Shown here: positions 9,506-26,539 of the stretch, piece by piece
Layout of the letters: every line of letters begins with the position of its first letter
Numbering within the stretch: position 1 is the stretch's first letter
Program-made: the position numbers and the translations under genes
Virus record (IMG/VR): IMGVR_UViG_3300016484_000737
Location: 1-34,682 of that record
DNA length: 34,682 nucleotides
Source of the DNA: a virus
Lineage: Duplodnaviria; Caudoviricetes
Strand: one strand, 5' to 3'
Notes under the pieces: generated by a model
What the model was told of the DNA's origin: nothing
Seen by the model: the letters and a program-made list of their open reading frames with translations, nothing else
Databases searched by the model: none

Positions 9506-10582
9506 ATGGCAGACACTGCTAGTATCAACATTGAATACGAACCCAACTGGGAAAACCTGCACACGCGCAAGCGTCTTGAAAAAGTCCTGGCGTGGGCACC
9601 ACAGTTCTGCGTGGGCAATCGAGGCACTGTCCTCCCTGTCCGTCTCTCAAGCAAGATCCTCAACGAAGTGTTTGGCCCTAAGGGCAACCAGATGGGCGAC
9701 TACTTCCGCTCAAAACTTCTGGTCGAGGTGAGCAAGAGCTACTCAACGAAGCACAAGTACTGCAAGGAATACCACGTCAAACTTGCCGGCTTCAATGAAC
9801 TTAGTGAGAGACTATTCAACAACTACACACAAACAGCTGATGTTGATACTAGCCGTGCCATTGACCGCCTGAAGGAAAACCACAAGGACGAACTGGCATC
9901 TGGAAAGTTCGTGATGAAGGACGCGAGCTCTCGCTTGTGGCACCCACTGCAGAATCTAAGGCGTGCTGACAAAGCAGTTTTCTGGCAGAACTACCTCCCA
10001 CACAACTACGACATCTCGGCTTGCGCCCCAAGCATTCTCTACCAACTTGCACTCAAGAGTGGCATGCCAGAAATTTTGGCAGAAGCGATTCGACTCTATG
10101 TTGATACTAAGGGCGAGTTCAGACAGCACGTAGCAGACATCTCTGGGCTCTCTGTTGATGATGCAAAGAAGCTCATCAACAGCTTGTTCAATGGTGCTCG
10201 TCTTGCCAAGAACACCCGCTGCACTGCTTTCCAGATGCTTGACTTTGACACCGCCAGAATGGATGCTCTGCAGAAAGATGAGCGCATTCAAGCTCTTCGA
10301 AAGGCAATCCGAAATGCGTGGAAGACTATTGAGATGGCAATGAATTCACACGCTCCAAAAGGTGCAAAGGTTTCGCTCAAGACATCCAAGGTCAAGTGGG
10401 GCATCTACTTCAGCATGGAGCGCAAGGTGCTGAACGCCATCACGCGAGAGCTTGACAACCAAGATCTGCACTACTTCACTGAACACGACGGTTTCCGCAC
10501 CAACAAAGTTCCCAACATTCCTGCCATCGAGCAGGCTATTTTCACAGCAACCAAGCTTCGGCTTACCATCCTAGGAGATTGA
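9506..10582 (+). CDS. Minimal family-A DNA polymerase-like protein (TV-Pol-like putative primase/polymerase, replication initiator)
   Basis: 358 aa with RBS TAAGGAG. Ordered motifs SSRLWHPLQNL (cf. PolA TGRLSS..PNLQNI), NYDISACAPSIL (motif A, D169), AKKLINSLFNG (motif B, K221) and YFTEHDGF (motif C, H327-D328). No exonuclease domain. Confidence 0.72.
   Translation: MADTASINIEYEPNWENLHTRKRLEKVLAWAPQFCVGNRGTVLPVRLSSKILNEVFGPKGNQMGDYFRSKLLVEVSKSYSTKHKYCKEYHVKLAGFNELSERLFNNYTQTADVDTSRAIDRLKENHKDELASGKFVMKDASSRLWHPLQNLRRADKAVFWQNYLPHNYDISACAPSILYQLALKSGMPEILAEAIRLYVDTKGEFRQHVADISGLSVDDAKKLINSLFNGARLAKNTRCTAFQMLDFDTARMDALQKDERIQALRKAIRNAWKTIEMAMNSHAPKGAKVSLKTSKVKWGIYFSMERKVLNAITRELDNQDLHYFTEHDGFRTNKVPNIPAIEQAIFTATKLRLTILGD
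9806..9855 (+). repeat. Dispersed 50-bp element, copy 1 (inside polymerase gene, codons 101-117)
   Basis: GAGAGACTATTCAACAACTACACACAAACAGCTGATGTTGATACTAGCCG. Extra core copies at 9518-9531 (minus strand) and 10098-10109 (plus strand). Confidence 0.95.
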
Positions 10583-10583
10583 A

Positions 10584-11042
10584 ATGGACCAACTCATGTT
10601 TACCGAACACCTGAAGGACCTCAAGCGCGGCGATCTGCTGACGCCAGAACTGCTCTCAGAGCTCCTCAGTGCCTCCCAGATCACACAGGCTCAGGCCGAT
10701 GAAGTGGCATCTTACACGCCATCTGAGGAGTTCAAGCGCCTCAAGACGAAGCTCGAAGCTGCTGATGCAGAGACTGCTGAGGACATCAACCTCCTCGAAG
10801 CAAGTCTGAATCTTGCCAAGGAGTTCAGCCTGATCACTGAGGGCGAGTACGATGATCTGTTCGAGCTGTTTGATGGCACCTATGGGCTACGCATTGTGGA
10901 GCACGAAGGTCTACAGATGGTTGCCTGTGCAGTCCCTTTCTACAACGGCAAGGAAAGCCTGCGAGGTGATGGCTGTGTCTACATGTACGACGGAATGTGG
11001 ATCAACATCTTTGATGGCACCATGAAAGACGAACGAGCCTAA
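10584..11042 (+). CDS. Acidic hypothetical protein co-transcribed with the polymerase
   Basis: 152 aa, RBS AGGAG, starting 1 nt after the polymerase stop. D/E-rich. Confidence 0.75.
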   Translation: MDQLMFTEHLKDLKRGDLLTPELLSELLSASQITQAQADEVASYTPSEEFKRLKTKLEAADAETAEDINLLEASLNLAKEFSLITEGEYDDLFELFDGTYGLRIVEHEGLQMVACAVPFYNGKESLRGDGCVYMYDGMWINIFDGTMKDERA

Positions 11043-11055
11043 TAGGCCAATCTTC

Positions 11056-11090
11056 CGACAAAAGGACCCGAAGGTCCTTTTGTCGTTTCT
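11056..11090 (+). terminator. Intrinsic terminator, probably bidirectional
   Basis: CGACAAAAGGACC-CGAA-GGTCCTTTTGTCG forms a 13-bp perfect stem, followed by TTTCT. Confidence 0.85.
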
Positions 11091-11117
11091 GGGCCAGGTT
11101 GAGTTCCCTCCTGAGAA

Positions 11118-11167
11118 TTTCTGATACATATCTTATGACTCGGTTACAATGTAACTTGTATCAGAAA
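11118..11167 (+). promoter_or_regulatory. Putative sigma70-type promoter of the sigma factor gene with nested operator-like inverted repeats
   Basis: CTGATA (11121-11126), 18 bp, then TACAAT (11145-11150). Palindrome GTTACA-A-TGTAAC at 11143-11155. Outer inverted repeat TTTCTGATACA 11118-11128 / TGTATCAGAAA 11157-11167. Confidence 0.55.
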
Positions 11168-11177
11168 AGGACCTCCA

Positions 11178-11597
11178 GTGCCCCAAAATGAACGCAAACA
11201 CTACCTCTCCAACAAAGATTTGTTGGCTGCTATCGAAGAAGCCAAGCAAGTTGGTTTCCTCACGAACAAGCTCGCAAAGATGCTCACCCTCCTTGCTGAG
11301 CGCTATTCCTACCACCCATGGTTCTGCAACTACAGCTTCCGTGAGGACATGGTCTCAGAGGCAGTCACAAACCTCGTAAAGAACTGGCACAAGTTCGATG
11401 CCACCAAATCGAACAATCCCTTCGCCTTCTACACAACTGCTATTCGACGCAGCTACCTAGGCTACCTTGAAAGAGAGCGTGAACAAAGCTCCATCAAAGA
11501 TGCCCTCCTCGTGGAAGAAGGATTCACCCCAAGCTGGAACTACCAAGCACGCATGGCCGGATCAGACATGGCGTTCATGACAGTGGAGGCAGAATGA
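11178..11597 (+). CDS. gp55: T4 gp55-like sigma factor for late transcription
   Basis: 139 aa, GTG start with AAGGA RBS. HYLSNKDLL...LAERYSYHPWFCNYSFREDMVSEA...KFDATKSNNPFAFYT follows the gp55 pattern HYVNNK...F.NY..REDMI......FD..KS.NPFAY.T. Confidence 0.82.
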   Translation: MPQNERKHYLSNKDLLAAIEEAKQVGFLTNKLAKMLTLLAERYSYHPWFCNYSFREDMVSEAVTNLVKNWHKFDATKSNNPFAFYTTAIRRSYLGYLEREREQSSIKDALLVEEGFTPSWNYQARMAGSDMAFMTVEAE

Positions 11598-11827
11598 GCT
11601 TTCGCAAAGTCAATTGGGACGGTTTCAAACTTGGTGGCCACTATCAGAAAGCAAGAGTCAGCTTCGCACCACCCAAGAAGCAAGATCGAAGGGACAATGC
11701 GCAGGAGGTCAGAATCTCCAACGCCATCTCAAAGTCTCTCAAATCCAAGCGCAAGAACGAAGAGCTGTTTGCCAGCCTCTCAGAAGAACGTCAACAAGCG
11801 ATCCTCAAGGCGCTAGTATCAACATAA
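11594..11827 (+). CDS. Small basic hypothetical protein
   Basis: 77 aa with ATGA overlap on the sigma gene. K/R-rich. Its last codons contain a core repeat (11812-11826). Confidence 0.6.
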   Translation: MSFRKVNWDGFKLGGHYQKARVSFAPPKKQDRRDNAQEVRISNAISKSLKSKRKNEELFASLSEERQQAILKALVST

Positions 11828-11855
11828 TAAGAAACTCACCTGGCGATTGAACCTT

Positions 11856-11906
11856 CGGCTAGTATCAACATCAGCTGTTGTGTGTAATTTGTTGAATAGT
11901 CCTCTC
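11856..11906 (-). repeat. Dispersed element, copy 2 (inverted, intergenic)
   Basis: Reverse complement reads GAGAGGACTATTCAACAAATTACACACAACAGCTGATGTTGATACTAGCCG. Satellite core at 11812-11826, offset 46 bp. Confidence 0.95.
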
Positions 11907-11908
11907 CT

Positions 11909-11919
11909 ACGATAAATAG
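11909..11919 (+). promoter_or_regulatory. Putative late promoter (ACGATAAATAG) for the packaging operon
   Basis: Identical 11-mer at 15555, 17294 and 27602. Confidence 0.75.
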
Positions 11920-11997
11920 AAGGTCAGCTTGGCAGATTACATCACCTGTCAGGTCGAACTATACCCATACAAGACCTCCAAGGAAAAGGAATCAGCT

Positions 11998-12459
11998 ATG
12001 AGCATCAGCTCCCGTCCTGATCTGTCTACTTCACTGAAAGTATCAGGAAATCGAACAAACTACAAGCCCGTCGAAATGACAGATGAGTCTGTCTTTGACC
12101 TGGCCCGCCACTACTACACCCTCGACGAGATTGCAGCTCGTTTTGGCGTGTCCAATCACACTGTCCTAGAGCACCATGGTGATGCCTTCCGTGAGGGAAA
12201 GCACAATGCTATGCAGAAGCCGCGGATGCTGTTGAACAAGATCTTTGACGACTTCATGGGCTCTGATGGAGACACCGTGAACTTTGCTCGTCCAGACGTC
12301 CCAGTCCACAACCTTTTGAAGGCCATTGAGCTCCACGCCAAGAAGTACGAAGGTATGGGCTCCAAGCAGACCATTGAGCACAAGGGTCTGAACTACGACT
12401 CTGTGGAATCCCAAGTCGAAGTCATTGAGCGCCCAGTGGAGGAATCTGATGAGGACTGA
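11998..12459 (+). CDS. terS: Terminase small subunit
   Basis: 153 aa from ATG 11998 (RBS AAGGA). HTH-like YTLDEIAARFGVSNHTV. Overlaps the start of terL. Confidence 0.7.
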   Translation: MSISSRPDLSTSLKVSGNRTNYKPVEMTDESVFDLARHYYTLDEIAARFGVSNHTVLEHHGDAFREGKHNAMQKPRMLLNKIFDDFMGSDGDTVNFARPDVPVHNLLKAIELHAKKYEGMGSKQTIEHKGLNYDSVESQVEVIERPVEESDED

Positions 12460-13816
12460 GCGTGTATTGAAGTTGAAGCCGCGCTTGATGCCTCACCAGG
12501 TCGACTTTGTGATGGACGACTTCACCCCTATTCAAGGGTTTGTGGGTGGCTATCGAGCTGGTAAGTCTGAAGCCCTGACTTGGAAGTCATTGCGTTGTGC
12601 TACTGAGCTTTTCCCAGGCGAACATGGGGTCATCATTAGCCCAATCGCTGGTATGAATCAGCGGAACATTGTTCCTATTCTTCGTCGCATCATGCCTACT
12701 ACTGGCCTTGAGTACGACGTTGAGGGTCTCGCAAACAAGCGTGTTGACCACCTCGACATCAAGGTTGGTAATCGCATGAGCCGTATTTGGCTTGGTGTCT
12801 CTGCTGAAAACTACACCCGCATGAACGGTATGTCTCTTGCTTGGGGTGGCTTCGATGAGGCTGACCTTTGCCGCAATGCTGAGACTGCCTATGACGCCTT
12901 TGTGGAGCTTGGCAACCGTTTGTCTGAGGCTGAGAACGCCCTCCAATTTGCTGTGTCCACGCCTGAAGGCTTCAACAACTTCATGTACCGTCGCTTTGTT
13001 GAAGAGCGCAATGTGGAGTGGTTGATGAAGGAGCGCACCATGACCAAGGAGGAAGCAGAAGCTGCTGCGGCCAAGGTCAAGATCTGGCACGTGAAGATGA
13101 CTGACAACTTCTTGCTGCCAAAGGGCTATCTTGCTTCTCGCCTGGCCAACATTCCAGCCAACAAGCAATCTGCCTACGTGAATGGTGAGTTCGCAAACAT
13201 CTTCACTAAGACGGTGTATGAGTGCTTTGACCGCGTAGAGAACCACACCGACATGACGGACATGACTAATCCTCATGCCCCAATCCACATTGGTATGGAC
13301 TTCAACGTGGAACACTGCGCTGCTATTGCCCATGTGATTGACCAGAATGGCGACCCACACGCAGTCTACGAGTTCATTGACCTCTTCAACACCGAGAAGA
13401 TGTGTCAAGCGATCAAGGCGAAGTATGGCACTCGTCGTGTCATTGTCTATCCTGATGCGTCAGGCAAGAACCGCAATGCTGCTGGTCTGAGCACATCTCA
13501 CGCCATCATTCGGCAATATGGCTTCGAGATCAAAGTGCCTAATCAGAACCCAGGCGTTTGGAAAGATCGCCCAAATGATGAAGGCAACCGCGTCAACACC
13601 ATGAACGCTATGTTCAAGGCTGCGAATGGGAAGCGCAGATACAAGGTAAATACAAGGCTCTGCCCCACTTATACACGGTGCTTGGAGCGCCAAGGGTGGA
13701 AAGATGGTGAGCCTGACAAGTCCAACAACGTCGACCACCCGCTTGATGCAGGCGGCTACTTCATTCACTTCAACTACAACCTACAGGGCCGTCCATCGGT
13801 AAGACAACATGGCTAA
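12449..13816 (+). CDS. terL: Terminase large subunit
   Basis: 455 aa from ATG 12449. PHQ motif, Walker A GGYRAGKS, Walker B GGFDEAD, STPEG, and RNase H-like nuclease motifs GMDFN, PDASG and DHPLDA. Confidence 0.95.
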   Translation: MRTERVLKLKPRLMPHQVDFVMDDFTPIQGFVGGYRAGKSEALTWKSLRCATELFPGEHGVIISPIAGMNQRNIVPILRRIMPTTGLEYDVEGLANKRVDHLDIKVGNRMSRIWLGVSAENYTRMNGMSLAWGGFDEADLCRNAETAYDAFVELGNRLSEAENALQFAVSTPEGFNNFMYRRFVEERNVEWLMKERTMTKEEAEAAAAKVKIWHVKMTDNFLLPKGYLASRLANIPANKQSAYVNGEFANIFTKTVYECFDRVENHTDMTDMTNPHAPIHIGMDFNVEHCAAIAHVIDQNGDPHAVYEFIDLFNTEKMCQAIKAKYGTRRVIVYPDASGKNRNAAGLSTSHAIIRQYGFEIKVPNQNPGVWKDRPNDEGNRVNTMNAMFKAANGKRRYKVNTRLCPTYTRCLERQGWKDGEPDKSNNVDHPLDAGGYFIHFNYNLQGRPSVRQHG

Positions 13817-15260
13817 GATCACAGACCTCTTTGACGGAACCAACAAGGACTCCGCTCAAGCATTCCTTGACTACTACGACGGTAAGCAAAAGCCTTACCT
13901 CATGAAGAAGCTGCGTAAGCTTCGCAAGAACGCCATTACTAAAGGCCTGCAGCCACGCCATCGCAACATTGTGAAGATGGTTGTTGACAAGTCTGGTCTA
14001 CTGTTCAATGGCAAACCGCCTACTCTCAACATCTATGTTGGTGAGGACCAGACGCAGATTGATGAAAATCAGTCAGCTGAGCTGATGGTGTGGCTTGATT
14101 CTTGCGACTGGGTTGAGTTCTTCACCAACTTCGACGCTGTGGTGCGTATGCTTCGCACAGGTGTTGTCCTGTGGCAGTACATCCCTCCGTCTGATGGTGA
14201 AGCTCCTGCGCTGTACCCAATCATCCTCGGTCAGCACAATTCTGCTGTTCACGTTGACAACATCACTCGCAAGATTGACACCGTTGTGTACTGCACCGGC
14301 AAGACCAAGGACGGTGAAACCTTCCGTGTGTGGACGCCTGAGGTGATTCAAGACCTGTTTGTTGACAAGCACGGTCAAGAGTCCATCATCAATGCTGAGC
14401 CAAATCCGTATGGTGCTGTTCCAGCTTCTGCTTTCCACGACACCAACACCCCACGTGATGGATTCTGGAATGAGATTCCTGAGGACCTCATCGAAATCAA
14501 CGACATCTACAACATTGCGCTGAGTGACTCTGAATACTCGTCGATGTGGGCAAAGTATCAGACTGCTGTCACGAACTCTCGTGTGGCTGCTTCTGATAAC
14601 CAAGCCGGCCTGATGGTCCCTGTGAACATCCCAGGCACTCCATATGACCGTATGGTTGAAACTACACCAGCTGCTTTGGGTGGCCCAGACACCATTCTGG
14701 AGCTCGACACCAACGGTGTGCAAGCACCTTTCTTCGAGTACAAGGGCCCTAAGCCAGACTTGATGCCACTTGACTCCATTGTGAAGCAGTGGGTCATCGA
14801 CTTTGCTGGCGACTGGAGTGTGAATGCTGCTGTTGAAACAAATGCATCTGACTCTGGCTTCAAGCTGATTGTGCGCGAAATGCCAAACCTGGAGCTGCGC
14901 AAGAAGCGCCAGCGCATGTTTGAGGCAGGCTTCCACCGCATGTTCAAGGTCATCAAGCTTGTCGTGAACACCTTCCACCCTGGAACATTCACTGACGATG
15001 CTGAGCTGTTTGTCAAGTTCGCCAACCCAGACCTTCCAATCGATGAGAAGACCACTGAAGAAGTGTGGAGCCGCCGTATCAAGGAAGGTCGTGCTTCTCG
15101 TCTCATGTACTTCATGCAAGTCCACGGCATGACTGAGAAGGAAGCTCAGGCCACGATTGATGAGATTGATGCTGAAGCTGCTGCACCAGCCCCAGCTACG
15201 CCTCAAGTCACTGGCGTGACAGCAGACCAGAACATGGTCACAACTAACGTCACCATCTGA
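13809..15260 (+). CDS. Portal protein (SPP1 gp6-like)
   Basis: 483 aa directly after terL. DYYDGKQ, NIVKMVVD, NPYGAVP and LIEINDIYN motifs. Confidence 0.85.
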   Translation: MAKITDLFDGTNKDSAQAFLDYYDGKQKPYLMKKLRKLRKNAITKGLQPRHRNIVKMVVDKSGLLFNGKPPTLNIYVGEDQTQIDENQSAELMVWLDSCDWVEFFTNFDAVVRMLRTGVVLWQYIPPSDGEAPALYPIILGQHNSAVHVDNITRKIDTVVYCTGKTKDGETFRVWTPEVIQDLFVDKHGQESIINAEPNPYGAVPASAFHDTNTPRDGFWNEIPEDLIEINDIYNIALSDSEYSSMWAKYQTAVTNSRVAASDNQAGLMVPVNIPGTPYDRMVETTPAALGGPDTILELDTNGVQAPFFEYKGPKPDLMPLDSIVKQWVIDFAGDWSVNAAVETNASDSGFKLIVREMPNLELRKKRQRMFEAGFHRMFKVIKLVVNTFHPGTFTDDAELFVKFANPDLPIDEKTTEEVWSRRIKEGRASRLMYFMQVHGMTEKEAQATIDEIDAEAAAPAPATPQVTGVTADQNMVTTNVTI

Positions 15261-15544
15261 TGCCAGCAATCTCGGTCAGGATCAGGAACTCAAGTCTTGA
15301 TGGCTTCGCTTGGGAAGCTGTCAAGGATGAGTTCTTTCAGCTCCTCATTGACCTAACCCCGGTTGACACTGGGCTATGCAGAGATAGTTGGGAACGTGAG
15401 GACAATGGGGATGTGTTCATCGCATTCAACCCAACGGAATACGCTAGTTATCTTGACGAAGGTTGGTCAAAACAGGCTCCTAGGGGCATGATTCGACCTG
15501 CGTTGGATGAGCTCGAAAATATTGTGGCTGGTTATCGCAATTGA
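15260..15544 (+). CDS. HK97 gp10-like morphogenesis protein
   Basis: 94 aa. TPVDTGLCRDSW...NPTEYASYLDEGWSKQAPRGMIRPA. Confidence 0.75.
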   Translation: MPAISVRIRNSSLDGFAWEAVKDEFFQLLIDLTPVDTGLCRDSWEREDNGDVFIAFNPTEYASYLDEGWSKQAPRGMIRPALDELENIVAGYRN

Positions 15545-15548
15545 CCGC

Positions 15549-15567
15549 CAAAACACGATAAATAGAA
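15549..15567 (+). promoter_or_regulatory. Putative late promoter for scaffold and capsid
   Basis: CAAAACACGATAAATAGAA, 19 bp identical to 27596-27614. Confidence 0.8.
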
Positions 15568-15634
15568 AGCGCGGTAGACCACTACTGCCACCTAATCTTC
15601 ATATCATACTTCCTGGACAGGAGAAGTCATCACC

Positions 15635-16252
15635 ATGACAACAGAGAACCAAGGCGAGGGCACGCCTCAAAACAATGCCAACGGCGCCGACGACAATGCA
15701 GCAACTGAAGCAGAAACCCTTCGAGGTGAACTGCTGAAGGTCACGCAAGAACGTGATGCAGCAAAGAAGAAAGCAAGGGACTACGAACAAGCTGCTAAGC
15801 AGGCAGATCAATGGAAGAGCCAAGTTGAGGCTCTGACTGTTGAGAAGAGCAATCTTCACAGCCAGCTGACTGCCATTCAGAACACTGTCCGAGACAAGGA
15901 CGTGAGCCAGCATCTTACCACCGCCTTGGAAGCTGCAGGAGCACGAAATGTCGAAGGTGCAATGAAGCTGATTGACCGCAGTAAGGTCGAGTTTGGTGAA
16001 GACGGAAACGTCAAGATCGAGAGTGTTTCTGCTCTTGTCAATGCAACGAAGGCATCTGACCCGTGGGCTTTCAAGGAGCCAGAGGATCCCCAAGGAAAAA
16101 AGGGGAACTCTTCCAGTACTACTGGATCACAACAGCCGCCTACCGTCAAGGGTGCTGCCCAACTTGATGCAAAGGGCGCATTTGAGACAGAACTTCGTGC
16201 TGCAAAGACACCACAAGAGCTTCAAGCAGTCTTGAAGAAGTATGGTAAGTAA
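15635..16252 (+). CDS. Capsid scaffolding protein
   Basis: 205 aa with acidic N-terminus, coiled coil, ALEAAGARN, PWAF and a G/S/P-rich tail. Directly upstream of the capsid gene. Confidence 0.85.
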   Translation: MTTENQGEGTPQNNANGADDNAATEAETLRGELLKVTQERDAAKKKARDYEQAAKQADQWKSQVEALTVEKSNLHSQLTAIQNTVRDKDVSQHLTTALEAAGARNVEGAMKLIDRSKVEFGEDGNVKIESVSALVNATKASDPWAFKEPEDPQGKKGNSSSTTGSQQPPTVKGAAQLDAKGAFETELRAAKTPQELQAVLKKYGK

Positions 16253-16277
16253 CTCAATCTCATAAGGAGTCATTCAA

Positions 16278-17207
16278 ATGGCTGATTTCGCAACTAACAT
16301 GTCTGGTACCGCTGAGCTTGATGACAGCGAAGTCCTGGCATTCGACCAAGGCGTCCTGATTGGCGTCGGTCAAAACAACGTGATGGACCAGTTTGTCACG
16401 TATGCAGAAGATATCGGTGCCAAGAGCATCGCTATCACCAAGTATCCGCGCATTGCCGCTGATGAATCCACTCTCCTGGAACGTGAAGCAATGCAAGCTT
16501 CGGCAATGTCCGACGCTGAAGTGCTGTTCACCCCAGCTGAAATCGGCTTCCACGTCACTCTGACGAATCTTGCTATGGCTCAGTCCGGCGGCAAGGTCCT
16601 TCGCGGTGCTGTTGAAGTTGTGGGTCGTCATGCTGGTGAAAAGCTGGACCGCCTGGCTATCGCAGCTCTCAATGCTTCTACCAACGTGATCTTCAATGGC
16701 ACGGCTGGTACTGAAGCTGGTGTTGCTGTTGGCGACGTCTGCAATGGCGCGTTCCTCAACAAGATGTACAACAAGCTGGATCGCAACAGCGTTCCTAAGC
16801 TGGCTGGTGGCTACTACGTCGCTGTCCTGCACGCTGACCAGATCAGCGACATCCAACAGGATGCTGCATGGATTGATGTTGCCAAGTACGCTGGTGCAAT
16901 GGCTGTCCTGGCCAACGAAGTTGGTATCTTCAAGGGCTTCCGTGTTGTGCGCGACAACTTCGTCAAGGTCGCTGACCAAACTGGCGCAGGTACTGTGGAT
17001 GTCTACCGCGGCCTGTTCTTCGGTGCCAATGCCCTGGGCAAGGTATCCAGCCAGCCTCTGACCACCTTCGTCCAGCCAGCCAATGACCCAGGTCAACGCT
17101 TCTGGTACGCAGGCTACAAGGCTATGGTCAAGTACGGCATCGTTGATGCTGATGCTGTGTTCATCGGTGGCACTTCGTCATCCTTCAGCACGACCAACGC
17201 TAGCTAA
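16278..17207 (+). CDS. Major capsid protein (HK97 fold, N4-gp56-like)
   Basis: 309 aa with strong RBS TAAGGAG. YYVAVLH..Q..DI..D..W...KY, NEVGIFKGFRVV and LFFGANALG motifs. Confidence 0.9.
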   Translation: MADFATNMSGTAELDDSEVLAFDQGVLIGVGQNNVMDQFVTYAEDIGAKSIAITKYPRIAADESTLLEREAMQASAMSDAEVLFTPAEIGFHVTLTNLAMAQSGGKVLRGAVEVVGRHAGEKLDRLAIAALNASTNVIFNGTAGTEAGVAVGDVCNGAFLNKMYNKLDRNSVPKLAGGYYVAVLHADQISDIQQDAAWIDVAKYAGAMAVLANEVGIFKGFRVVRDNFVKVADQTGAGTVDVYRGLFFGANALGKVSSQPLTTFVQPANDPGQRFWYAGYKAMVKYGIVDADAVFIGGTSSSFSTTNAS

Positions 17208-17213
17208 TGAGTA

Positions 17214-17280
17214 GAGCGTCGGGAGACGCTCCTCTAGCATCCTAGGGGCAAGATCGCAAGGTCTTGCCCCTTCTTTGTTT
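17214..17280 (+). terminator. GNRA hairpin plus intrinsic terminator after the capsid gene
   Basis: GAGCGTC-GGGA-GACGCTC (17214-17231), then AGGGGCAAGATC-GCAA-GGTCTTGCCCCT (17244-17271) followed by TCTTTGTTT. Confidence 0.85.
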
Positions 17281-17293
17281 GTATCGCCCAATT

Positions 17294-17304: not shown

Positions 17305-17313
17305 GAGTACACG

Positions 17314-17511: not shown

Positions 17512-17512
17512 C

Positions 17513-18621: not shown

Positions 18622-18629
18622 GGTGAATC

Positions 18630-18986: not shown

Positions 18987-19246
18987 CAACTGTAGTCCCA
19001 ATTGAGCAACGCAACACAGTAGTCGTAGAAGACATTGAGCACGTTGTCGTCGTTGAGGACACAGAGAAAGTCGTGGTCGTCACAAACTCTGTTATCAACG
19101 TGGGCACACCACAAGATCTGAGCAACTACTACACCAAGAGCGAAACGGATGGACTCTTGGCTGGAAAGGCAAACTCCGTCCACAACCACGTGGTGAGTGA
19201 CATCACCGATTTCACAAGCACGCTCATCAACGGCGGCTCATTCTAA
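18983..19246 (+). CDS. Short fibre connector protein
   Basis: 87 aa with V-rich N-terminus and DLSNYYTKSETDGLLAGKA..HNH..SDITD. Ends INGGSF. Confidence 0.65.
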   Translation: MTTVVPIEQRNTVVVEDIEHVVVVEDTEKVVVVTNSVINVGTPQDLSNYYTKSETDGLLAGKANSVHNHVVSDITDFTSTLINGGSF

Positions 19247-19255
19247 GGAAGAAAC

Positions 19256-20137
19256 ATGGCAAACGTAATCAAGACCAAGTTCTCCGCTGTGACCAGCACT
19301 CCAACGTCGCTGGCTGTGGGCGAACTCGCATATTCAGATGTCTCTGACACCCTCTTCATTGGTGACAACACTGGCACCCCAGTCGCAATTGGCGGTGCTG
19401 CTGCTTTCACCAAGCTCGCTGGCATTGAGGCAGGAGCTGAAGTCAATGATGTGAACTCTGTTGCTGGCAAGACTGGTACAGTCACGCTGGTGATGGCCGA
19501 CATCACTGACTATTCGACTGTTCTGGCTGCCTACCTGCCGCTCTCTGGTGGCACGCTCTCTGGCTTCCTGACGCTGCATGCTGATCCAACCTCTGGTATG
19601 CACGCTGCAACCAAGCAGTATGTGGACAACTACGCGCTTGGTCTGGACTTCAAACAGTCTGTTCGCGTGGCTTCTACTGCCAACGTGGACATCAGCACTG
19701 CACTTGAGAATGGCGATTCTCTCGATGGTGTGACTCTGGCAACTGGCGATCGTGTTCTGCTCAAGAACCAATCGACTGCTTCACAAAACGGCATCTATGT
19801 GGTTGCTGCTTCTGGTGCTGCTTCACGCGCAACTGATGCTGACACTTCGGCAGAGCTCACCAAGGGTGCTTTCGTCTATGTTGAGTCTGGCACCGCAAAT
19901 GCTGGCTCTGCATATGTCGTGTCCTCTGCAAACGTTCTTGGTACTGACCCAGTGACTTGGACTCAGTTTGGTGGTGGTGCAACTTACTCTGCTGGTACTG
20001 GCTTGACGCTGACCGGCAATGTGTTTGCACTTGACAACCACTCTGCTGCCCTGATCACTTCTGGCACCCTTGACGTGGCCCGTCTGCCTTCTACGGTCCT
20101 GCTTGACACAGAGACCATTGACGGCGGCTCTTTCTAA
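19256..20137 (+). CDS. Fibre protein (head/collar fibre-like)
   Basis: 293 aa. N-terminal PTSLAVGELAY..LFIG module, ADPTSGMHAATKQYVD, and KQSVRVAST...DGVTLATGDRVLLKNQ...QNGIYVV. Ends IDGGSF. Confidence 0.75.
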   Translation: MANVIKTKFSAVTSTPTSLAVGELAYSDVSDTLFIGDNTGTPVAIGGAAAFTKLAGIEAGAEVNDVNSVAGKTGTVTLVMADITDYSTVLAAYLPLSGGTLSGFLTLHADPTSGMHAATKQYVDNYALGLDFKQSVRVASTANVDISTALENGDSLDGVTLATGDRVLLKNQSTASQNGIYVVAASGAASRATDADTSAELTKGAFVYVESGTANAGSAYVVSSANVLGTDPVTWTQFGGGATYSAGTGLTLTGNVFALDNHSAALITSGTLDVARLPSTVLLDTETIDGGSF

Positions 20138-20146
20138 GGATTGAGC

Positions 20147-20620
20147 ATGGCCAACACTATCGTCCACAAGCGCAGTTCAACAGGTGGTGCTGTACCAGCT
20201 GGTGGCTCGCTGACACCAGGCGAGTTGGCCGTCAACACTGCAAATGGTCGAGTCTTCACAAAGCGTGATGATGGCACCGTTGTTGATGTTGGTTGGACAC
20301 CTCGCATTGGGTCTACCACTGCAACATCCTCCTCTGCTTCTATTAGCTGGGATTTGTACGACATCATTCGTCTGACACTCCAAGCTAACGTAACCACTTT
20401 TTCAATCTCTGGTGCTGCTGATGGGCAGCGCTGCATGTTGGAAGTGATTCAAGACAGCACTGGAGGCCGAACAATCAATTGGCCAAGCAACATTCGATTT
20501 GGCACTGACATCACAAGCATCACGCTCACCTCAACTGCAAACAAGAAGGACCGTATTGGTCTAATCTACGATTCAGCTGCTGGTAAATATGACGTGGTTG
20601 CAATCGTAAAGGGATTCTGA
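20147..20620 (+). CDS. Fibre subunit with Mtd-N-like N-terminus
   Basis: 157 aa. KRSSTGGAVP...LTPGELAVNTANGRVF. C-terminal IQDSTGGRTI.W domain is paralogous to that of 4284-5285. Confidence 0.7.
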   Translation: MANTIVHKRSSTGGAVPAGGSLTPGELAVNTANGRVFTKRDDGTVVDVGWTPRIGSTTATSSSASISWDLYDIIRLTLQANVTTFSISGAADGQRCMLEVIQDSTGGRTINWPSNIRFGTDITSITLTSTANKKDRIGLIYDSAAGKYDVVAIVKGF

Positions 20621-20621
20621 A

Positions 20622-22871
20622 ATGGCTATCTACTACATCGACCTTGTCAATGGTAACGACTCCAATGCTGGTACCTCTTGGGGTGCAGCATGGAAGACGT
20701 TCACTTCTGGCGCAACTGCTGCACGCCTCACGCCAGGTGATGAGATTCGTGTTGCTGAAACCACTGCACCAAGCTCTGTTGGAACTGCAACTTGGACTTC
20801 GGGCAAGATTGGCAACTCGATCACTTTCTCTTCGGCTCCAACGAAGTCCATCGACCCATGCAAGAGCGGTTGGGTGACTATGGGTTCTGGCTCGACTGTG
20901 ACAAACGGTCAGACCACTGCCTACATGACGCCAACCACTTTTGGCGGCACCACAATGGGTGCACTGCAATGGACCACGTCTGCTTCTGCCAACGGCGCCT
21001 ACAAGGTCCTTGGAAGCACGATTGACTACTCTGCTCACCAACAGATCAGCTTCTGGTTCCGAACTGGCACGGCATTTGATTGCTCGAGCACCCAAAACCT
21101 GCTCATCGATCTGTGCTCTGATGCTGGCGCAACCACTGTGGTGTCTGCTCTGACTGCCCCAAAGTGGTCCTACGCTGCCAACATGTGGTACCCAATCGTC
21201 ATTGACCTGGGCTCTGCACTGTCAAGCACTGTGCGTTCTGTTCGCATTCGTACTACCAACACCACAACTCAGACTTTCTACATCGATGAGATGTTTGCAT
21301 CTCCAGCAGGTGGCCTGACTCTGTGGTCGCTGATTGGTTTGAATGATGGCGACTGGCACGCAATCCGTAGCATTCGTGATGCTGATGTTCAACTGCTCGC
21401 CGGTGCTAACCTTGCAACTGCAACTGGCGGCACTCTGTACAGCACGGCAATTGATGCTGCGTGGATGGGAACAACAACTACTGCCACCACATACAAGCTT
21501 GAGCCATCTCGTGCTCTGCTGCCATCTACTGGCCCAGCAGCTACTTTTGGTGTGAACGCCACAGAGGCTGGCACTACTACCGCACCATATGTCTATCGTG
21601 GTGGTTGGAACACTGGGACTGGCCTTCAAACTGGTGTGACGTTCCTTGACAACGTGACTCATACCACCTCTTCTGTTGGCTTGAACACGGTTTCTACACC
21701 ATACGTTTTCTTCGAGAACTTTGGCCTTGTCCGTTTTGCTTCTTCAAATAGCAACCAAGCAAACCTTTTCACGAAGGACATTTCTGTTGTGGCATCAGTT
21801 GGTGTCAACGGCAACTCTGCCTCGAATATCACGTTTGCAACTTCAATTGCAAACCTTGGATACACGACACTTGGCTGGAAGAGCTTCTCTGGTGTGTACA
21901 ACCCACCTTCGTATTACATTGGTGGCTTCCATCAACCATTCAACTATGTGATTGGCAATTCTTGGGGCATCGTTTCAAACGCCAACGGTATCACGCTGAA
22001 CAGCATTGACCGCTGCAATATCACGATTGGTAATGTCTATGCGGCTCTCTGCAACAACACTGTTCTGAACCTCGGCACTAACCAGTCAAACGTGACAATT
22101 GGTGACTTCAAGACGTGCCCAACGGCTCAGACGTCTTCAACTGGCGTTCAGTTGACGTTTGGTTCTGGTGTGAACAGCAACTTCCGTTTTGGTACTGTTG
22201 ATTACGCGGCATATGCTACGTCTTCAGCTATTGGTTCAAACAACGTAGTCACATTCAACAGCCTTGCAACATCATCCACCGGTGTTGTATTTGGTTCTTG
22301 GGGTGCCCAGAACACCATCTACATCAAGGTGTTGAACTCAGCTTCTCTAGTTGTTGGTACCGCACAGCAACACAACAACAAGCTGTACTTCCACAACCTC
22401 AATGGCGTGACTGACTACTTCCGTGCCTACCCAATTGATGGAAACACCAACCCTGGGTACTTTGAACTGCAAGGCACTGATGTGTACACCGCTGGATCAA
22501 AGGCTGTTCGCTTCTACAACTCGTCTGGCTACACTCAAGGCACCTCGCCTGGTTGGGGTGTGACGTACGACCTGAAGTTGGCAAGTGCCGCGGCAGAAGC
22601 AAACAAGCTTGTGACTATCACTGCTCGTGTCAAGCGCAACAGCACCAACGTGACTGCAGGCATCTATGTTCCAGGCTTCAATCATCTGGTTCCTGGCTAC
22701 ACTGCTGACATCACGCAGGCTTGCTCTAGCACTGGCACATATGAGCTGCTGACGATCACCTTTACACCAACAGACAGCTGTGTCTTTGATGTGTATGCCT
22801 ATTTCAAGGCAACTGGAACTGTGTCGCCTGACATCGTCTGGGATGCTCTGACAATCTCGCAGGCAGCATAA
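20622..22871 (+). CDS. Large adhesin/spike protein, probable beta-helix and carbohydrate-binding domains
   Basis: 749 aa. YYIDLVNGNDSNAGTSWGAAWKT is typical of pectin-lyase-like N-termini. N/S/T-rich central region. Confidence 0.65.
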   Translation: MAIYYIDLVNGNDSNAGTSWGAAWKTFTSGATAARLTPGDEIRVAETTAPSSVGTATWTSGKIGNSITFSSAPTKSIDPCKSGWVTMGSGSTVTNGQTTAYMTPTTFGGTTMGALQWTTSASANGAYKVLGSTIDYSAHQQISFWFRTGTAFDCSSTQNLLIDLCSDAGATTVVSALTAPKWSYAANMWYPIVIDLGSALSSTVRSVRIRTTNTTTQTFYIDEMFASPAGGLTLWSLIGLNDGDWHAIRSIRDADVQLLAGANLATATGGTLYSTAIDAAWMGTTTTATTYKLEPSRALLPSTGPAATFGVNATEAGTTTAPYVYRGGWNTGTGLQTGVTFLDNVTHTTSSVGLNTVSTPYVFFENFGLVRFASSNSNQANLFTKDISVVASVGVNGNSASNITFATSIANLGYTTLGWKSFSGVYNPPSYYIGGFHQPFNYVIGNSWGIVSNANGITLNSIDRCNITIGNVYAALCNNTVLNLGTNQSNVTIGDFKTCPTAQTSSTGVQLTFGSGVNSNFRFGTVDYAAYATSSAIGSNNVVTFNSLATSSTGVVFGSWGAQNTIYIKVLNSASLVVGTAQQHNNKLYFHNLNGVTDYFRAYPIDGNTNPGYFELQGTDVYTAGSKAVRFYNSSGYTQGTSPGWGVTYDLKLASAAAEANKLVTITARVKRNSTNVTAGIYVPGFNHLVPGYTADITQACSSTGTYELLTITFTPTDSCVFDVYAYFKATGTVSPDIVWDALTISQAA

Positions 22872-23356
22872 TGACGATCGCAAGCAAGACTGTTCTTGTC
22901 AACTTCCGCAAAGTCCGTGGTGGCATGGTCTTTGCGGATGTTTGCGCAAAGAGCACGATTGACACGACTGGCATCAGCAGCTTTGTGCACCTTGGTAATA
23001 CTTTCTTTGGTGTTGGAAATACGACAACAGAAACGTATACGTCAACTACAAAGAAAGTTCGACTTGGATTGTCATACACTGAAGTGACAACCAAGTCAAC
23101 AGTCGATTCAAGTTATGGGCAGGGTAGGACACGTCTTGCTCAGCCTTACGTGGTGAAGTTTGCTGGTACATCGTCTTATCCAACGATGGAGGCATACAAG
23201 GTACGACTTGGCAATTCGTTCAATGACATCACTGCGAAGTCAACGATCAATGCAAGTGAGTTTGACGTAGTTCGTCTAGGTGCTCCTTTCTGGGTGCGTT
23301 ACACTGGATCTACCCCACCACCATTCAACGCATCTCAATTCTTCGCAATGTTCTAA
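22871..23356 (+). CDS. Protein with three internal repeats of about 50 aa
   Basis: 161 aa. KVRGGMVFADVCAKSTID / KVRLGLSYTEVTTKSTVD / KVRLGNSFNDITAKSTIN. Confidence 0.7.
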   Translation: MTIASKTVLVNFRKVRGGMVFADVCAKSTIDTTGISSFVHLGNTFFGVGNTTTETYTSTTKKVRLGLSYTEVTTKSTVDSSYGQGRTRLAQPYVVKFAGTSSYPTMEAYKVRLGNSFNDITAKSTINASEFDVVRLGAPFWVRYTGSTPPPFNASQFFAMF

Positions 23357-23364
23357 GGAAAAAT

Positions 23365-23766
23365 ATGTCAGATGAAGCAAACAAGCTCAAAGCAGTGGGG
23401 GATTTTATCGGCGGGCTTACTCCTCGTAGCCTTCTTCTTGGGGTTCTCGCTGGGTTCTTTGGTATCGGTCTGTGGACCCTGTTTGACAACAGGGCTGCAG
23501 TGTTTACATACATTGTGGGGTCGCCTTACCTTTTGGTTGGCATTGGCGTTGGTCTTGTTCTCATTGCCTTCGGATGGGTGGTGAGCATTCTGCTTCGTAG
23601 AGTTGAAGAATTCATGCAGAAGCAGATTGACAAGCTAACTGATGATTCTTCTGCTCTCAAGCAAGAACTAGTAGATGTCAGAGCGCAGCTTCACGAGTGT
23701 CAGGAGGAATGTCGAGCAGGAACCCAGCACAAGCTCGACAGGATTTTGGAGAAGCTAAATGCCTAA
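23365..23766 (+). CDS. Holin-like membrane protein (2 TM plus coiled coil)
   Basis: 133 aa with two hydrophobic segments. First gene of the lysis cluster. Confidence 0.55.
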   Translation: MSDEANKLKAVGDFIGGLTPRSLLLGVLAGFFGIGLWTLFDNRAAVFTYIVGSPYLLVGIGVGLVLIAFGWVVSILLRRVEEFMQKQIDKLTDDSSALKQELVDVRAQLHECQEECRAGTQHKLDRILEKLNA

Positions 23767-24247
23767 TAGTACCCACCGCGTAGTGAAACAACTTCACAAC
23801 CTCATCAACTCAGTGATCTGGGTTGGTGGTGGGATCCTAACACTTGTGATGATTTTCACGCTTGGACCTATTCTAGAAGGGAAGTACTTCCCTGTGACTA
23901 AGGACATTCAAGCAACATTCATCAAGAACGACGGCGACAAGATGCTTTTCAGTGTCTATGGGAACAAGGTCCGTGATTGTGTTCTACTTGATGCACGAGT
24001 CCTAGTTGACATCAATAAACACGACAACAAACCTCCAGTGAAGGGCATCATCTGGCCTATTGACGATGGTCAGGGTCCATCTCGTCGAGCCCTGGGTTTC
24101 CAGGACCTTGGCATTTGGGCAGTAGTTCCAATCGGAGACACAGCAACAATTTCAGCAGCGTATTCTTGTCACCCACTTTGGGACACGCGCGTGAACTTGG
24201 GCACCCTGTTTATCGCGAAAGACAACCATGTTGAAAAAGATAAGTGA
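23759..24247 (+). CDS. Single-pass membrane protein with soluble domain
   Basis: 162 aa. TM segment VIWVGGGILTLVMIFTLG, and two Cys in the C-terminal domain. Confidence 0.6.
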   Translation: MPNSTHRVVKQLHNLINSVIWVGGGILTLVMIFTLGPILEGKYFPVTKDIQATFIKNDGDKMLFSVYGNKVRDCVLLDARVLVDINKHDNKPPVKGIIWPIDDGQGPSRRALGFQDLGIWAVVPIGDTATISAAYSCHPLWDTRVNLGTLFIAKDNHVEKDK

Positions 24248-24503
24248 AGGTTGGAGCTCAATGCTCCGAGATGGTGGACCTAGTTCAAACCGGTTCATCA
24301 ACATTGGTGTGTTCATCGTTCTCAGCATCTCGATGCTGAAGCTAACCTGGATCACTGGGTCAGAAGTTGACATGTGGTACTGGGCGTGCTTTACAACGCT
24401 GGCTGTTTATGGAATGGGCACTGCTTCGTTCAACAAGTGGCTCGACATTCTGAAGGCCAAGGTTGGAGGTCGAAATGAGCAAGACACGCCGTCAGGTAAA
24501 TGA
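24228..24503 (+). CDS. Holin-like membrane protein (2 TM)
   Basis: 91 aa. GGPSSNRF followed by two TM segments and a basic C-terminus. Confidence 0.6.
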   Translation: MLKKISEGWSSMLRDGGPSSNRFINIGVFIVLSISMLKLTWITGSEVDMWYWACFTTLAVYGMGTASFNKWLDILKAKVGGRNEQDTPSGK

Positions 24504-24693
24504 GGAGCTGCGCCGTTGCAAGAATGGCGCACACCGAGAACACTTCACACGGTCAAAGGGCGCATTTGTCCAAGATGATTGGCGCGTAGAGCGAGACCTT
24601 GAAATTGAAGAGCATGAATGGGGAAATCACCTTGACCTGCTCGAAAGCTACCAGCACTGGGACGAATACATTCAAAAGGGGATGCTGTCGTGA
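24475..24693 (+). CDS. Hypothetical protein
   Basis: 72 aa from ATG 24475 with RBS GGAGGT. Basic N-half and acidic C-half. Confidence 0.55.
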   Translation: MSKTRRQVNEELRRCKNGAHREHFTRSKGAFVQDDWRVERDLEIEEHEWGNHLDLLESYQHWDEYIQKGMLS

Positions 24694-25253
24694 CACCATT
24701 TGAACAGGCAATGAACTTCACAATGAAGTACGAAGTGGGTCCCTGGTGGAATCCTGATGACCCTGAAGTGATTGCTGGGCTCTGTTCTACCAAGGACCAG
24801 AAGCGAAAGACAGGATACGTGAATGACCCATTGGACAGGGGTGGCGAAACTAAATACGGTATCGCAAAGAACTCTAACGCCAATGTGGATATCGTGAAGC
24901 TGAATCTTGACGAAGCAAAGAAGATCTACGAAGCCAAGTACTGGCAAGTAGGCAAGTGCAACGAGCTGCCTGGGAAGGTCGCCGTTGCACACTTCGATGC
25001 TTGCGTCAATCATGGCCCAAAGAAAGCAATCCAGTTCCTGCAACGAGCACTTGGTGTTTCAGATGATGGTGACTTTGGACCAGCCACGAAAACAGCACTT
25101 GGCGCAGCACTTGCGCGTGAGAACGTCCTAAACAAAATGATTGCTGAGCGCCGTAGGTTCTTCTCTGCCGTCGTTCAGAACAACCCATCACAACAACGGT
25201 TCCTCACTGGGTGGATGAATCGCTGTGACGACCTTCAAAGGAGTCTAGCTTGA
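24690..25253 (+). CDS. Endolysin, glycoside hydrolase family 108 with C-terminal peptidoglycan-binding domain
   Basis: 187 aa. GYVNDPLDRGGETKYGI, FDACVNHG, LQRALGVSDDGDFGPAT and FLTGWMNR motifs. Confidence 0.92.
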   Translation: MTPFEQAMNFTMKYEVGPWWNPDDPEVIAGLCSTKDQKRKTGYVNDPLDRGGETKYGIAKNSNANVDIVKLNLDEAKKIYEAKYWQVGKCNELPGKVAVAHFDACVNHGPKKAIQFLQRALGVSDDGDFGPATKTALGAALARENVLNKMIAERRRFFSAVVQNNPSQQRFLTGWMNRCDDLQRSLA

Positions 25254-25489
25254 TCATTATCTACTCTAAACCAAATTGCCCAAACTGCGACATTGCCAAG
25301 ATGCAGGCCATGTTGCGAGGTGTCCCATTTGAAGAGCACTGCCTTGACACGCAGGAAAAGATCGCATCCTTTCTTGAACTCTACCCTGGTGTTCGAGCAG
25401 TGCCCTTCGTTACTACGAAGGATGGTCAACGAATTGGTGGCCTATCCTCGTTCAAAAGCTTCTTGCACAACTTGAAAGACACATCATGA
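25250..25489 (+). CDS. Glutaredoxin
   Basis: 79 aa. IIYSKPNCPNC, RAVP and IGG motifs. TTG start overlaps the endolysin stop. Confidence 0.88.
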   Translation: MIIIYSKPNCPNCDIAKMQAMLRGVPFEEHCLDTQEKIASFLELYPGVRAVPFVTTKDGQRIGGLSSFKSFLHNLKDTS

Positions 25490-25971
25490 ACGACAGTGTG
25501 ACAGAGACCAAGGAATCAAATCAACCATACACACGCGAACTAGATCTACCACCATTCCCTGTCTCTGTTGCACTAGCCATCGGCGAAGATGAGTGGATTC
25601 AGATCTGCGAGAAAAACGAGTTCAAAGACCGCACCTGGATGGCTGACAATAGCCTTGGTGAAGTCAGTGGTATGGGGTCAGTTGTAGTGGTCCGCTTTGC
25701 TGACCTTTCCTCATACGACATCATCAAACGCGCTGGTGTTTGTGCGCATGAAGCAGTTCATGTCTTCCAAGCACTTTGCCAGTACATCAACGAAACTGAG
25801 CCATCGACTGAATTCGCTGCATACTACGTGCAGGCAATCACACAATGGCTCCTCAAGGAGTTGGAATGTTCCCTATCCCAAGTCTCTACCTCAAGCTCGC
25901 AGGAGCAGCAATCGTCGCAGGAGTCATTGGACTCCACCTCTTCGGAGACTGGCGAACAAGCAGCAAGCTGA
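25486..25971 (+). CDS. HExxH-motif hypothetical protein (zincin-like)
   Basis: 161 aa. CAHEAVHVF...EFAAY. The S/Q-rich tail overlaps the next gene by 106 nt. Confidence 0.65.
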   Translation: MNDSVTETKESNQPYTRELDLPPFPVSVALAIGEDEWIQICEKNEFKDRTWMADNSLGEVSGMGSVVVVRFADLSSYDIIKRAGVCAHEAVHVFQALCQYINETEPSTEFAAYYVQAITQWLLKELECSLSQVSTSSSQEQQSSQESLDSTSSETGEQAAS

Positions 25972-26228
25972 ACGAGGTACAAGCAGAGCTCATCGCAACA
26001 AAGCAGGCCCTAAAGGTGGCAGAGGACAACTTCGTCCAGGCCACTAAAGACAGGGACGCATATCTCAAGGCGGGTCAAGAAGCTGAGCAGGCACGTGCTA
26101 AGGTTCAATCTGACCTCGCCGTCACTTTGAAAAAGCTGCGTCAACAAAAACCCCCAACCGAGTGCAAAGCGGCAATTGACTGGGCCGTACAGAACAAAGA
26201 CGACCTCAAGTGGGGAGACGAAAAATGA
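25866..26228 (+). CDS. Inner-membrane spanin (Rz-like)
   Basis: 120 aa from ATG 25866 (RBS AAGGAG). N-terminal TM, coiled coil and a C-terminal Cys. Confidence 0.75.
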   Translation: MFPIPSLYLKLAGAAIVAGVIGLHLFGDWRTSSKLNEVQAELIATKQALKVAEDNFVQATKDRDAYLKAGQEAEQARAKVQSDLAVTLKKLRQQKPPTECKAAIDWAVQNKDDLKWGDEK

Positions 26229-26539
26229 GAGCTCTATTCAACAACAACACACAAACAGCTGATGTTGATACTAGCCGAAAAGCAAAGCTCGCAGGTGTGT
26301 TTCTCTCTATGTTGATACTAGCCGGTTGCTGCACAGCACCACGGGTTGAGTACAGGGTTGCTGACATTCCTGAGCCACCAAAGGTGGAACGTCCTGTCCT
26401 TGAGAGTGTAAATATCAACAGCGGAATGGACGCTGGCTCGATCATTCAGACTTTCAGAGCTGACATCAAGCGCCTCCAGGCAACAATTTTGGAGTACGAG
26501 AAGATTCTCGATTCCTACAGGAAGAAGGATACGAAATGA
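26225..26539 (+). CDS. Outer-membrane spanin lipoprotein (Rz1-like)
   Basis: 104 aa from ATG 26225 (ATGA overlap). Lipobox LILAGC, Pro-rich segment and C-terminal helix. Confidence 0.75.
   Translation: MRALFNNNTQTADVDTSRKAKLAGVFLSMLILAGCCTAPRVEYRVADIPEPPKVERPVLESVNINSGMDAGSIIQTFRADIKRLQATILEYEKILDSYRKKDTK
26227..26277 (+). repeat. Dispersed element, copy 3 (inside the o-spanin 5' end)
   Basis: GAGAGCTCTATTCAACAACAACACACAAACAGCTGATGTTGATACTAGCCG. Satellite core ATGTTGATACTAGCCG at 26309-26324, offset 47 bp. Confidence 0.95.

Follow-up and report, generated by a model that had tools for sequence, protein, structure and literature searches.

In phages lambda and SPP1 the genes for the initiators O and G38P carry the origin within their linker-coding part, SPP1 having another site at a distance; these initiators carry no polymerase domain and require a helicase loader. 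The origin of plasmid ColE2 adjoins the rep gene. Rep of ColE2, a plasmid protein of the AEP family (PMC4980987; bioRxiv 2024.09.03.610885), has been reported in the case of ColE2-P9 to suffice for initiation in vitro together with Pol I and the single-stranded DNA-binding protein (SSB) (PMC4980987). Among proteins of the A-family fold, TV-Pol, encoded by viruses and integrase-linked elements, was described as a minimal core with a hairpin Arg, two Asp residues and no nuclease, and was predicted to be a primase-polymerase (PMC2579912). CCPol-MP of SCCmec is reported to prime de novo, with a preference for the element's origin just downstream of the operon (PMC7581432; bioRxiv 2022.12.02.518924), to require an OB-fold partner and the origin-binding helicase Cch2, to keep E710 and F762, and to use deoxynucleotides (PMC7581432). 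Finally, divPolA2, described as an accessory to PolB in 80-kb phages, has an active palm, no thumb or exonuclease, and an N-terminal domain of unassigned role (PMC11348598). Here we analyze the genome of a siphovirus-like phage, record IMGVR_UViG_3300016484_000737 (34,682 bp, completeness rating 98%; "the window" below means this whole stretch), which encodes a family-A-like polymerase, P0001, and contains three copies of a 50–51-bp element, one of them within the polymerase gene. The site at the heart of this element is real and family-wide, with each genome keeping its own version, and we consider it probable that P0001 is a one-protein, origin-specific initiator-primase built on the PolA fold, similar in this respect to ColE2 Rep, with the element as its cognate origin.

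The repeated element in the window and across the family

An earlier note on this DNA, made from its letters alone, had reported three copies of the element, seven occurrences of a core, and satellite cores 46 and 47 bp from the main cores of copies 2 and 3; all of these were confirmed (Table 1). The copies match pairwise in 48/52, 48/51 and 46/52 columns. The 12-mer core ATGTTGATACTA occurs exactly seven times (9520-, 9840+, 10098+, 11814-, 11860-, 26262+ and 26309+; the earlier note counted in two flanking bases, which puts its minus-strand numbers 2 nt lower), compared with three occurrences each for the commonest unrelated 12-mers in the genome, and with up to two mismatches it has 11 matches, against a mean of 1.77 and a maximum of 5 in shuffles. 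The five translations given for the core (ASINI, DVDTSR, YVDTK, LVST-stop and MLILAG) are all correct, and the claim that the constraint acts on DNA and not on protein stands, with the correction that copy 3 is read in the frame of copy 1, as TADVDTSR. Together with its satellite, copy 3 encodes the N-terminus and the lipobox of a spanin-like lipoprotein, read in the frame that is also used in the polymerase linker. At the core in the fingers-coding region the peptide is YVDTK or YVDKK in the three closest proteins and [YF]L[DE]DR in the other six.

Comparison with two related strains, X2 and X3 (the latter ~95% identical, on a 34,823-bp contig closing on itself), listed no difference for copy 2 in either its 24-nt core or the satellite core; the flanks differ, with 29 of ~343 positions around copy 2 changed between X3 and the window. 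The 5' tail of copy 2 in X2 matches copy 1 of the window in the stretch compared. The inverted half-sites TCAACA/TGTTGA with a 19-bp spacer, proposed earlier, are present in all three window copies but are not conserved: an inverted hexamer 5' of the core was found in 14 of 56 family sites at scattered spacings, the 19-bp spacing is confined to the window, a related locus sharing its core (L085) lacks the half-sites, and copy 2 of X3 is one base shorter between them. The half-site model of recognition was therefore dropped; TCAACA as such occurs 52 times in the window.

Table 1. Features of the polymerase locus and of its surroundings in the window
Feature	Position	Strand	Remarks
5' leader hairpin	9374..9466	+	22-bp perfect inverted repeat, 49-nt interior, z -5.1; candidate control element
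P0001 gene	9506..10582	+	stand-alone protein, 358 aa: N-terminal domain, linker, minimal family-A polymerase domain
Isolated core at gene start	9518..9531	-	candidate site of autoregulation; P0002 (70% identical) retains the peptide ASINI
N-terminal alpha/beta domain, aa 8–104	9527..9817	+	winged-helix-like, weak support; predicted site-binding domain
Element copy 1	9806..9855	+	in poorly conserved linker, aa ~101–117; core 9840–9851
Family-registered 24-nt site of copy 1	9831–9854	+	
Palm and fingers, aa 119–358	9860..10579	+	reduced thumb, no exonuclease
Isolated core in fingers-coding region	10098..10109	+	
T4 gp55-like late sigma	11178..11597	+	phrog_234, E 1.7e-29; outside the polymerase/element system; explains late transcription
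Satellite core of copy 2	11812..11825	-	46 bp from main core; spacing same in L085
Element copy 2	11856..11906	-	intergenic, inverted relative to copy 1; core 11860–11871
Late-promoter-like ACGATAAATA	11909..11918	+	distinct from the element; further copies at 15555, 17294, 27602
Element copy 3	26227..26277	+	start of spanin-like lipoprotein ORF (open reading frame) 26225–26539; core 26262–26273
Satellite core of copy 3	26309..26322	+	47 bp from main core; also codes LAGC lipobox

The family-wide analysis was based on 103 loci and the window, with 16 near-duplicate or fragmentary loci left out. Among the loci used, 98 have an ORF of at least 250 aa; filtering to <80% identity reduced them to 85, and with L070, whose frame is broken, excluded, the final set numbered 84. 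(In L070 and L032 the gene is frame-broken and both copies of the site are intact.) A model-free comparison of the linker zone with the zone around the stop codon, requiring an exact shared stretch of at least 14 nt, found stretches of 14–77 nt in 35/84 loci, against 0/84 when a zone of the same size in the polymerase domain was used; the expectation of an element particular to each relative, inside the gene and repeated at other places, is thus borne out in these loci. In 33 of these 35 loci the best match to the linker copy is the post-stop copy of the same genome. The window itself scores as a miss, because its copies lie further away. Tandem repeats of 28–116 bp follow the stop codon in 18/84 loci. 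A leave-one-out matrix (consensus ~ATACCCTAtTGTAttACAagTC) detected the site in 31/84 linkers and 35/83 post-stop zones (controls: 0/84 and 1/72), and at least one such site in 40/83 loci. In a FastTree tree the paired loci are spread over several supported branches, and 56 of the 84 loci have some site.

The variant found in the window diverges too much to be picked up by the matrix; it and 14 others were registered manually. This registration is anchored by the peptide TA(D/Y)VDTS, present in P0002–P0005, and by L085, a G+C-rich locus (47% identical, no phage genes recognized) that carries the window's core within the linker and past the stop codon, with another one 46 bp further on. A Roseateles locus (L129) combines a linker copy and three post-stop copies with an inverted copy ~2.1 kb further on, like copy 2 of the window. 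Such inversion is clearest in the extra copies of L014, L034 and L054. The linker/post-stop pairs are direct in 31 cases and inverted in 4, and in 10 of 30 whole records at least two strong copies are present, all in the same orientation, so that origins acting on both strands, suggested earlier as general, were rejected as a rule of the family and would be a lineage variant at most. Orientation within the gene is not fixed, because the linker copy is reversed in L133 and L087 and forms a triple of mixed orientation in L116. In L049, six copies of a distinct 15-mer, probably a promoter or operator, precede several genes.

The site itself is asymmetric. Identity between the copies of one genome continues beyond the conserved block by a median of 16 nt on its 5' side and by 1 nt on its 3' side, and is longer on the 5' side in 34/35 pairs (partner copies were picked by site columns 0–17, the flanks playing no part); the G content is 10% in the 5' tail versus 19% on the 3' side. 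This one-sided identity could mark an extended unwinding region, or conversion tracts begun at the core. Columns 19–21 vary as A/T, A/T and G/C in 86, 92 and 85 of 92 sites, respectively, a pattern which we infer would fit reading of duplex DNA from the minor groove. In nine loci (L016, L019, L026, L043, L044, L060, L096, L117 and L125) the differences between the two copies of a genome fall mostly in the final seven bases, which switch among a few words common to different genomes.

The P0001 protein, its family and its genomic context

The AlphaFold model of P0001 (predicted local distance difference test, pLDDT, 93) revealed a Pol I fold over the palm and fingers, with Pol I fragments as all of the top Foldseek matches. 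A structural comparison in VIA matched aa 119–358 to family-A polymerases (Z 11–12; Z 11.8 with root-mean-square deviation 4.0 over 205 aligned residues), with T7 RNA polymerase also matching (Z 9.6) and an AEP, the HHV1 primase, lower in the list (Z 7.2, 143 aligned). R143, D169, R206, K221, G230, H327, D328 and G329 are invariant in 83/83 sequences. The family-A-like polymerase with motif aspartates D169 (10010–10012) and D328 (10487–10489) that the earlier note had proposed is well supported by these data. R143 sits in the beta-hairpin E138–145, and the thumb comprises only two short helices (116–125 and 127–132). Among predicted structures, the viral neighbors of P0001 include D5-helicase fusions and the replication (primase/polymerase) proteins of Zamilon and Qinghai Lake virophage. 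In the RxxxK motif, K221 is invariant, position 217 is variable, and an invariant Arg is found at 206 instead. By motif register, with the Pol I numbering (D705/K758), A174 (Ala in 82/83) and N225 (Asn in 79/83) occupy the sugar-gate positions E710 and F762. These two residues have been named as the ribonucleotide gates of Pol I (PMC7581432).

The first search with P0001 yielded 93 matches, itself included, and the family comprises 1,094 representatives or clusters (50% identity) at E<=1e-10. Sequence searches of Pfam, PHROGs and PDB assigned P0001 to no family, and tblastn found no relative in cultured-phage collections (50,697 phage records, three queries) or in plasmid collections. Scanning viral contigs for 17-mers yielded 10 single matches, probably by chance; no longer, fused forms of P0001 were found, which is weak evidence.

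The N-terminal domain, folded alone, reached pLDDT 87.8 and gave matches to MarR, PadR and TubR (E>0.2) and to CRP, PadR and RTP (Z 3.3–4.4). Residues 101–120, where copy 1 of the element is located, belong to the least conserved blocks of the protein. The distance between sites correlates with that between N-terminal domains (rho 0.67) better than with that between polymerase domains (rho 0.50), and the partial correlations are 0.53 (p=0.002) and 0.13, respectively, or 0.42 vs 0.10 for the 43 post-stop copies alone. The co-variation is no more than suggestive and arises mainly between clades.

The earlier claim that this is the only recognizable replication gene holds in the window and in 26 near-complete relatives. 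Among 49 ORFs of the window, the DNA-metabolism matches besides ORF 9506–10582 are limited to endonuclease VII and glutaredoxin, with no helicase, primase, SSB or initiator found. The ORFs of the 26 relatives form 469 clusters, of which 234 proteins of 140–900 aa, mostly cluster representatives, were scanned, with no match to helicase, primase, polymerase, SSB or initiator families at E<=1e-8. DnaB_C was found in 0/27 records at least 90% complete and in 1/40 overall (a 101-kb fragment), Prim-Pol and DUF5906 in 0/33 records. The gene has no conserved partner, its commonest neighbors being terminase, portal, putative nucleases and methylases. All seven long bacterial loci (L129–L135; Pseudomonadota, mostly Burkholderiales) adjoin an integrase, recombinase or transposase; such neighbors are not present in the window itself, and most phage records have no recombinase.

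The recognized genes of the window phage all lie on the + strand, and its GC skew is uninformative. This siphovirus-like phage of 35 kb combines a T4 gp55-like sigma with T4-late-like promoters, and neither a sliding clamp nor gp33 was recognized in it. The ACGATAAATA sequence occurs four times, on the sense strand only (0 in shuffles), preceding the terminase small subunit, scaffold, adaptor and tail genes, and the strand-specific late-promoter motif GATAAATA is found also at 8753. The sequence [TG]ATAAATA is strand-biased in many of the 26 related records (L137–L188; 21:2 in L047, 7:0 in L045 and L069), despite which phrog_234 matched the window only; the gp55-like sigma, present in 1/33 records, was accordingly rejected as a fixed partner of the polymerase gene. 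A 152-aa ORF (10584–11042), with no family and no usable Atlas match, begins 2 nt past the stop of the polymerase gene and is a possible partner. The leader hairpin has similar counterparts upstream of the gene in L008, L012, L013, L085, L086 and L129. Upstream inverted repeats of at least 12 bp occur in 8/80 loci vs 2/68 controls and are concentrated in the clade of the window; in a rough five-sequence alignment 11/20 pairs show compensatory changes. The hairpin is a candidate copy-number control RNA; an Rfam search of the window gave no match.

Proposed mechanism and rival explanations

The element is likely the cognate replication origin of P0001, at which the protein would bind and prime without any phage helicase. 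The process might proceed as follows. The N-terminal domain would read the conserved core in duplex DNA, and the palm (D169/D328) would prime de novo beside the core, on the G-poor 5' tail. The primer would probably consist of ribonucleotides, because the gates E710/F762 of Pol I are Ala/Asn here. Host Pol I, SSB and the host replisome would then extend it, as for ColE2 Rep. Second copies and satellites at 41–47 bp may work in the manner of iterons, as sites of looping or titration or as back-ups. Initiation would probably be unidirectional, and the inverted copy 2 of the window may provide second-strand priming as a lineage-specific variant. We also put forward, more hesitantly and as something just short of probable, that P0001 represents a widespread and undescribed class of one-gene replicon, in which a winged-helix plus PolA-fold protein recognizes, opens and RNA-primes its own origin without a helicase or SSB partner, serves as the sole replication gene of many 26–40-kb tailed phages and of integrative islands, and by its own synthesis keeps the intragenic and post-stop copies identical.

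Several observations weigh against an initiator-primase with a cognate origin. The winged-helix matches of the N-terminal domain are many but below significance (Z<=4.4, E>0.2), the co-variation is weak within the 41 matrix-found loci (partial r only 0.13, p=0.054), 15 of the 56 site registers were set by hand, and 28 of the 84 loci have no detectable site. The Arg of the motif-B RxxxK is out of place and the Y766 position is mostly Asn, so that catalysis may be atypical. The scan of the relatives covered proteins of 140–900 aa, many representatives have no family, and a P-loop NTPase of unassigned role (phrog_1250) is present in at least three records. No SSB-like partner recurs beside the gene, while CCPol requires one for priming. 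In five loci (L009, L010, L038, L058 and L072), which are pieces of larger phages that have a helicase, SbcCD or gp55-like gene of their own, the gene is present and the site is not; because some large-phage fragments pair it with a helicase or SbcCD in this way, the polymerase gene can be accessory. Separately, phrog_1250, located at L162:6014-6886, L173:12312-13190 and L183:3-782, is a possible accessory replication factor.

Several of the features listed above would also suit a minimal single-subunit RNA polymerase, for which the elements would be promoters yielding short regulatory RNAs or mRNAs: the sugar-gate residues are replaced, T7 RNA polymerase is among the structural matches, the sites are asymmetric with a sharp 3' edge, and the same idea has been proposed for divPolA2 (PMC11348598). 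We regard it as unlikely, since in 30 whole records the sites cluster at the gene and not ahead of late operons, one copy is intragenic, copy 2 of the window points against all genes, 4/35 pairs are inverted, and the thumb is reduced. The promoter alternative, which the earlier note had raised, is further weakened by the gp55-like sigma and the strand-specific late promoters of the window, because of which late transcription has no need of the element. Similarly improbable in our estimation is that the sites are the ends of a self-copying cassette, whose enzyme copies or converts the intervening DNA, duplicating and homogenizing the sites and spreading the gene, with phage replication beginning elsewhere. 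The sites do bracket the polymerase domain, tandem repeats follow the stop codon, copy 2 of strain X2 matches copy 1 of the window in the stretch compared, and the long bacterial loci lie near an integrase, recombinase or transposase; the one-sided identity fits too, but would also be produced by an asymmetric origin. On the other hand, the N-terminal domain is not enclosed by the sites although it invariably accompanies the gene, the 26 genomes yielded no other initiator, and no joints between copies were detected in four contig sets (contigs drop rare forms).

Still less probable is that P0001 binds the sites and loads the host machinery in the manner of lambda O, its polymerase domain being confined to unwinding, repair or gap filling. 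The invariance of the catalytic Asp, Arg and Lys across 28–70% identity points to nucleotide addition, and no DnaB/DnaC loader partner was found in the records and the 26 relatives scanned, against which stand the accessory character of the gene in some large phages and the lambda O-like layout, with the origin in the linker. Most plasmid initiators, moreover, are described as winged-helix proteins (PMC4980987; bioRxiv 2024.09.03.610885). We give very little credence to the remaining explanation, according to which a host factor or a recombinase binds the sites and their proximity to the gene has unrelated reasons. Loci with no detected site and the frequency of integrases beside the bacterial loci agree with it, but in phages and islands alike the site keeps its fixed positions in the linker and past the stop codon, its sequence diverges along with the protein, it is asymmetric, and most phage records are devoid of a recombinase.

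Comparison with described systems

TV-Pol-type enzymes were predicted to be primases in 2008 and, as far as these accounts go, by 2020 only the partner-dependent CCPol had been tested (PMC2579912, PMC7581432). A literature search, in which subscription journals were poorly covered, found no description of the P0001 family or of its site, and a one-gene replicon of this kind would be undescribed. The family supplies an enzyme together with its candidate substrate, in dozens of natural protein-site pairs, and therefore binding, priming, nucleotide choice and specificity are directly testable. If correct, the proposed role of P0001 would explain the replication of many small phages with no annotated replication gene. 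As the sole replication gene product of such a one-gene replicon, P0001 would add a third structural type of origin-specific priming to those of DnaG and the AEP initiator-primases, and would stand functionally between Pol I and T7 RNA polymerase. The family is also a possible source of compact orthogonal replicons or of a site-specific primase.

P0001 resembles TV-Pol in its minimal family-A core without a nuclease, in the hairpin Arg (R143) and the two metal-binding Asp residues (D169 and D328), and in its structural neighbors, helicase fusions of virophages and polinton-like viruses; the integrase, resolvase or transposase neighbors at L129–L135 are reminiscent of the subset of TV-Pol not linked to D5. 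For the two-helix thumb of TV-Pol, the P0001 model offers only the two short helices noted above. It differs in having no RxxxK as such and no link to the D5 helicase (DUF5906 is absent also from among its neighbors), in its alpha/beta rather than all-helical N-terminal domain, and in its tailed-phage hosts, and the account of TV-Pol drawn on here describes no cognate site (PMC2579912). Unlike CCPol-MP, P0001 would act as a single protein and has its sugar gates replaced, and no adjacent origin-binding helicase was found; as to an OB-fold partner, its family shows no universal neighbor, and the next ORF has no usable Atlas match. With divPolA2 it shares a palm devoid of thumb and exonuclease, an N-terminal globular domain, and a weak common motif at the hairpin Arg and motif A. 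In contrast, divPolA2 keeps the Glu in motif A, no origin appears in the description consulted (PMC11348598), and no regular DNA polymerase was found in the window or in the 26 related records. Judging from an hhalign comparison of the P0001 family with divPolA2 (AUR84708; probability 0.8%, E 0.071, 45 columns), the two would be distant relatives at best. The distribution of the sites, which in 30 whole records are not placed ahead of late operons in gene orientation, does not point to a T7-like RNA polymerase. The layout with the origin in the linker is alike in lambda O and SPP1 G38P, from which P0001 differs in carrying a polymerase domain. As regards ColE2 Rep, an AEP primase with PriCT is not what was found here, the best matches of P0001 being to family A, with no Pfam match; P0001 is distinguished further by its PolA fold, its N-terminal predicted binding domain and the copy of the site inside the gene. 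The likeness to ColE2 Rep lies in the proposed mode of action, that of a single initiator-primase with host Pol I and SSB completing initiation.

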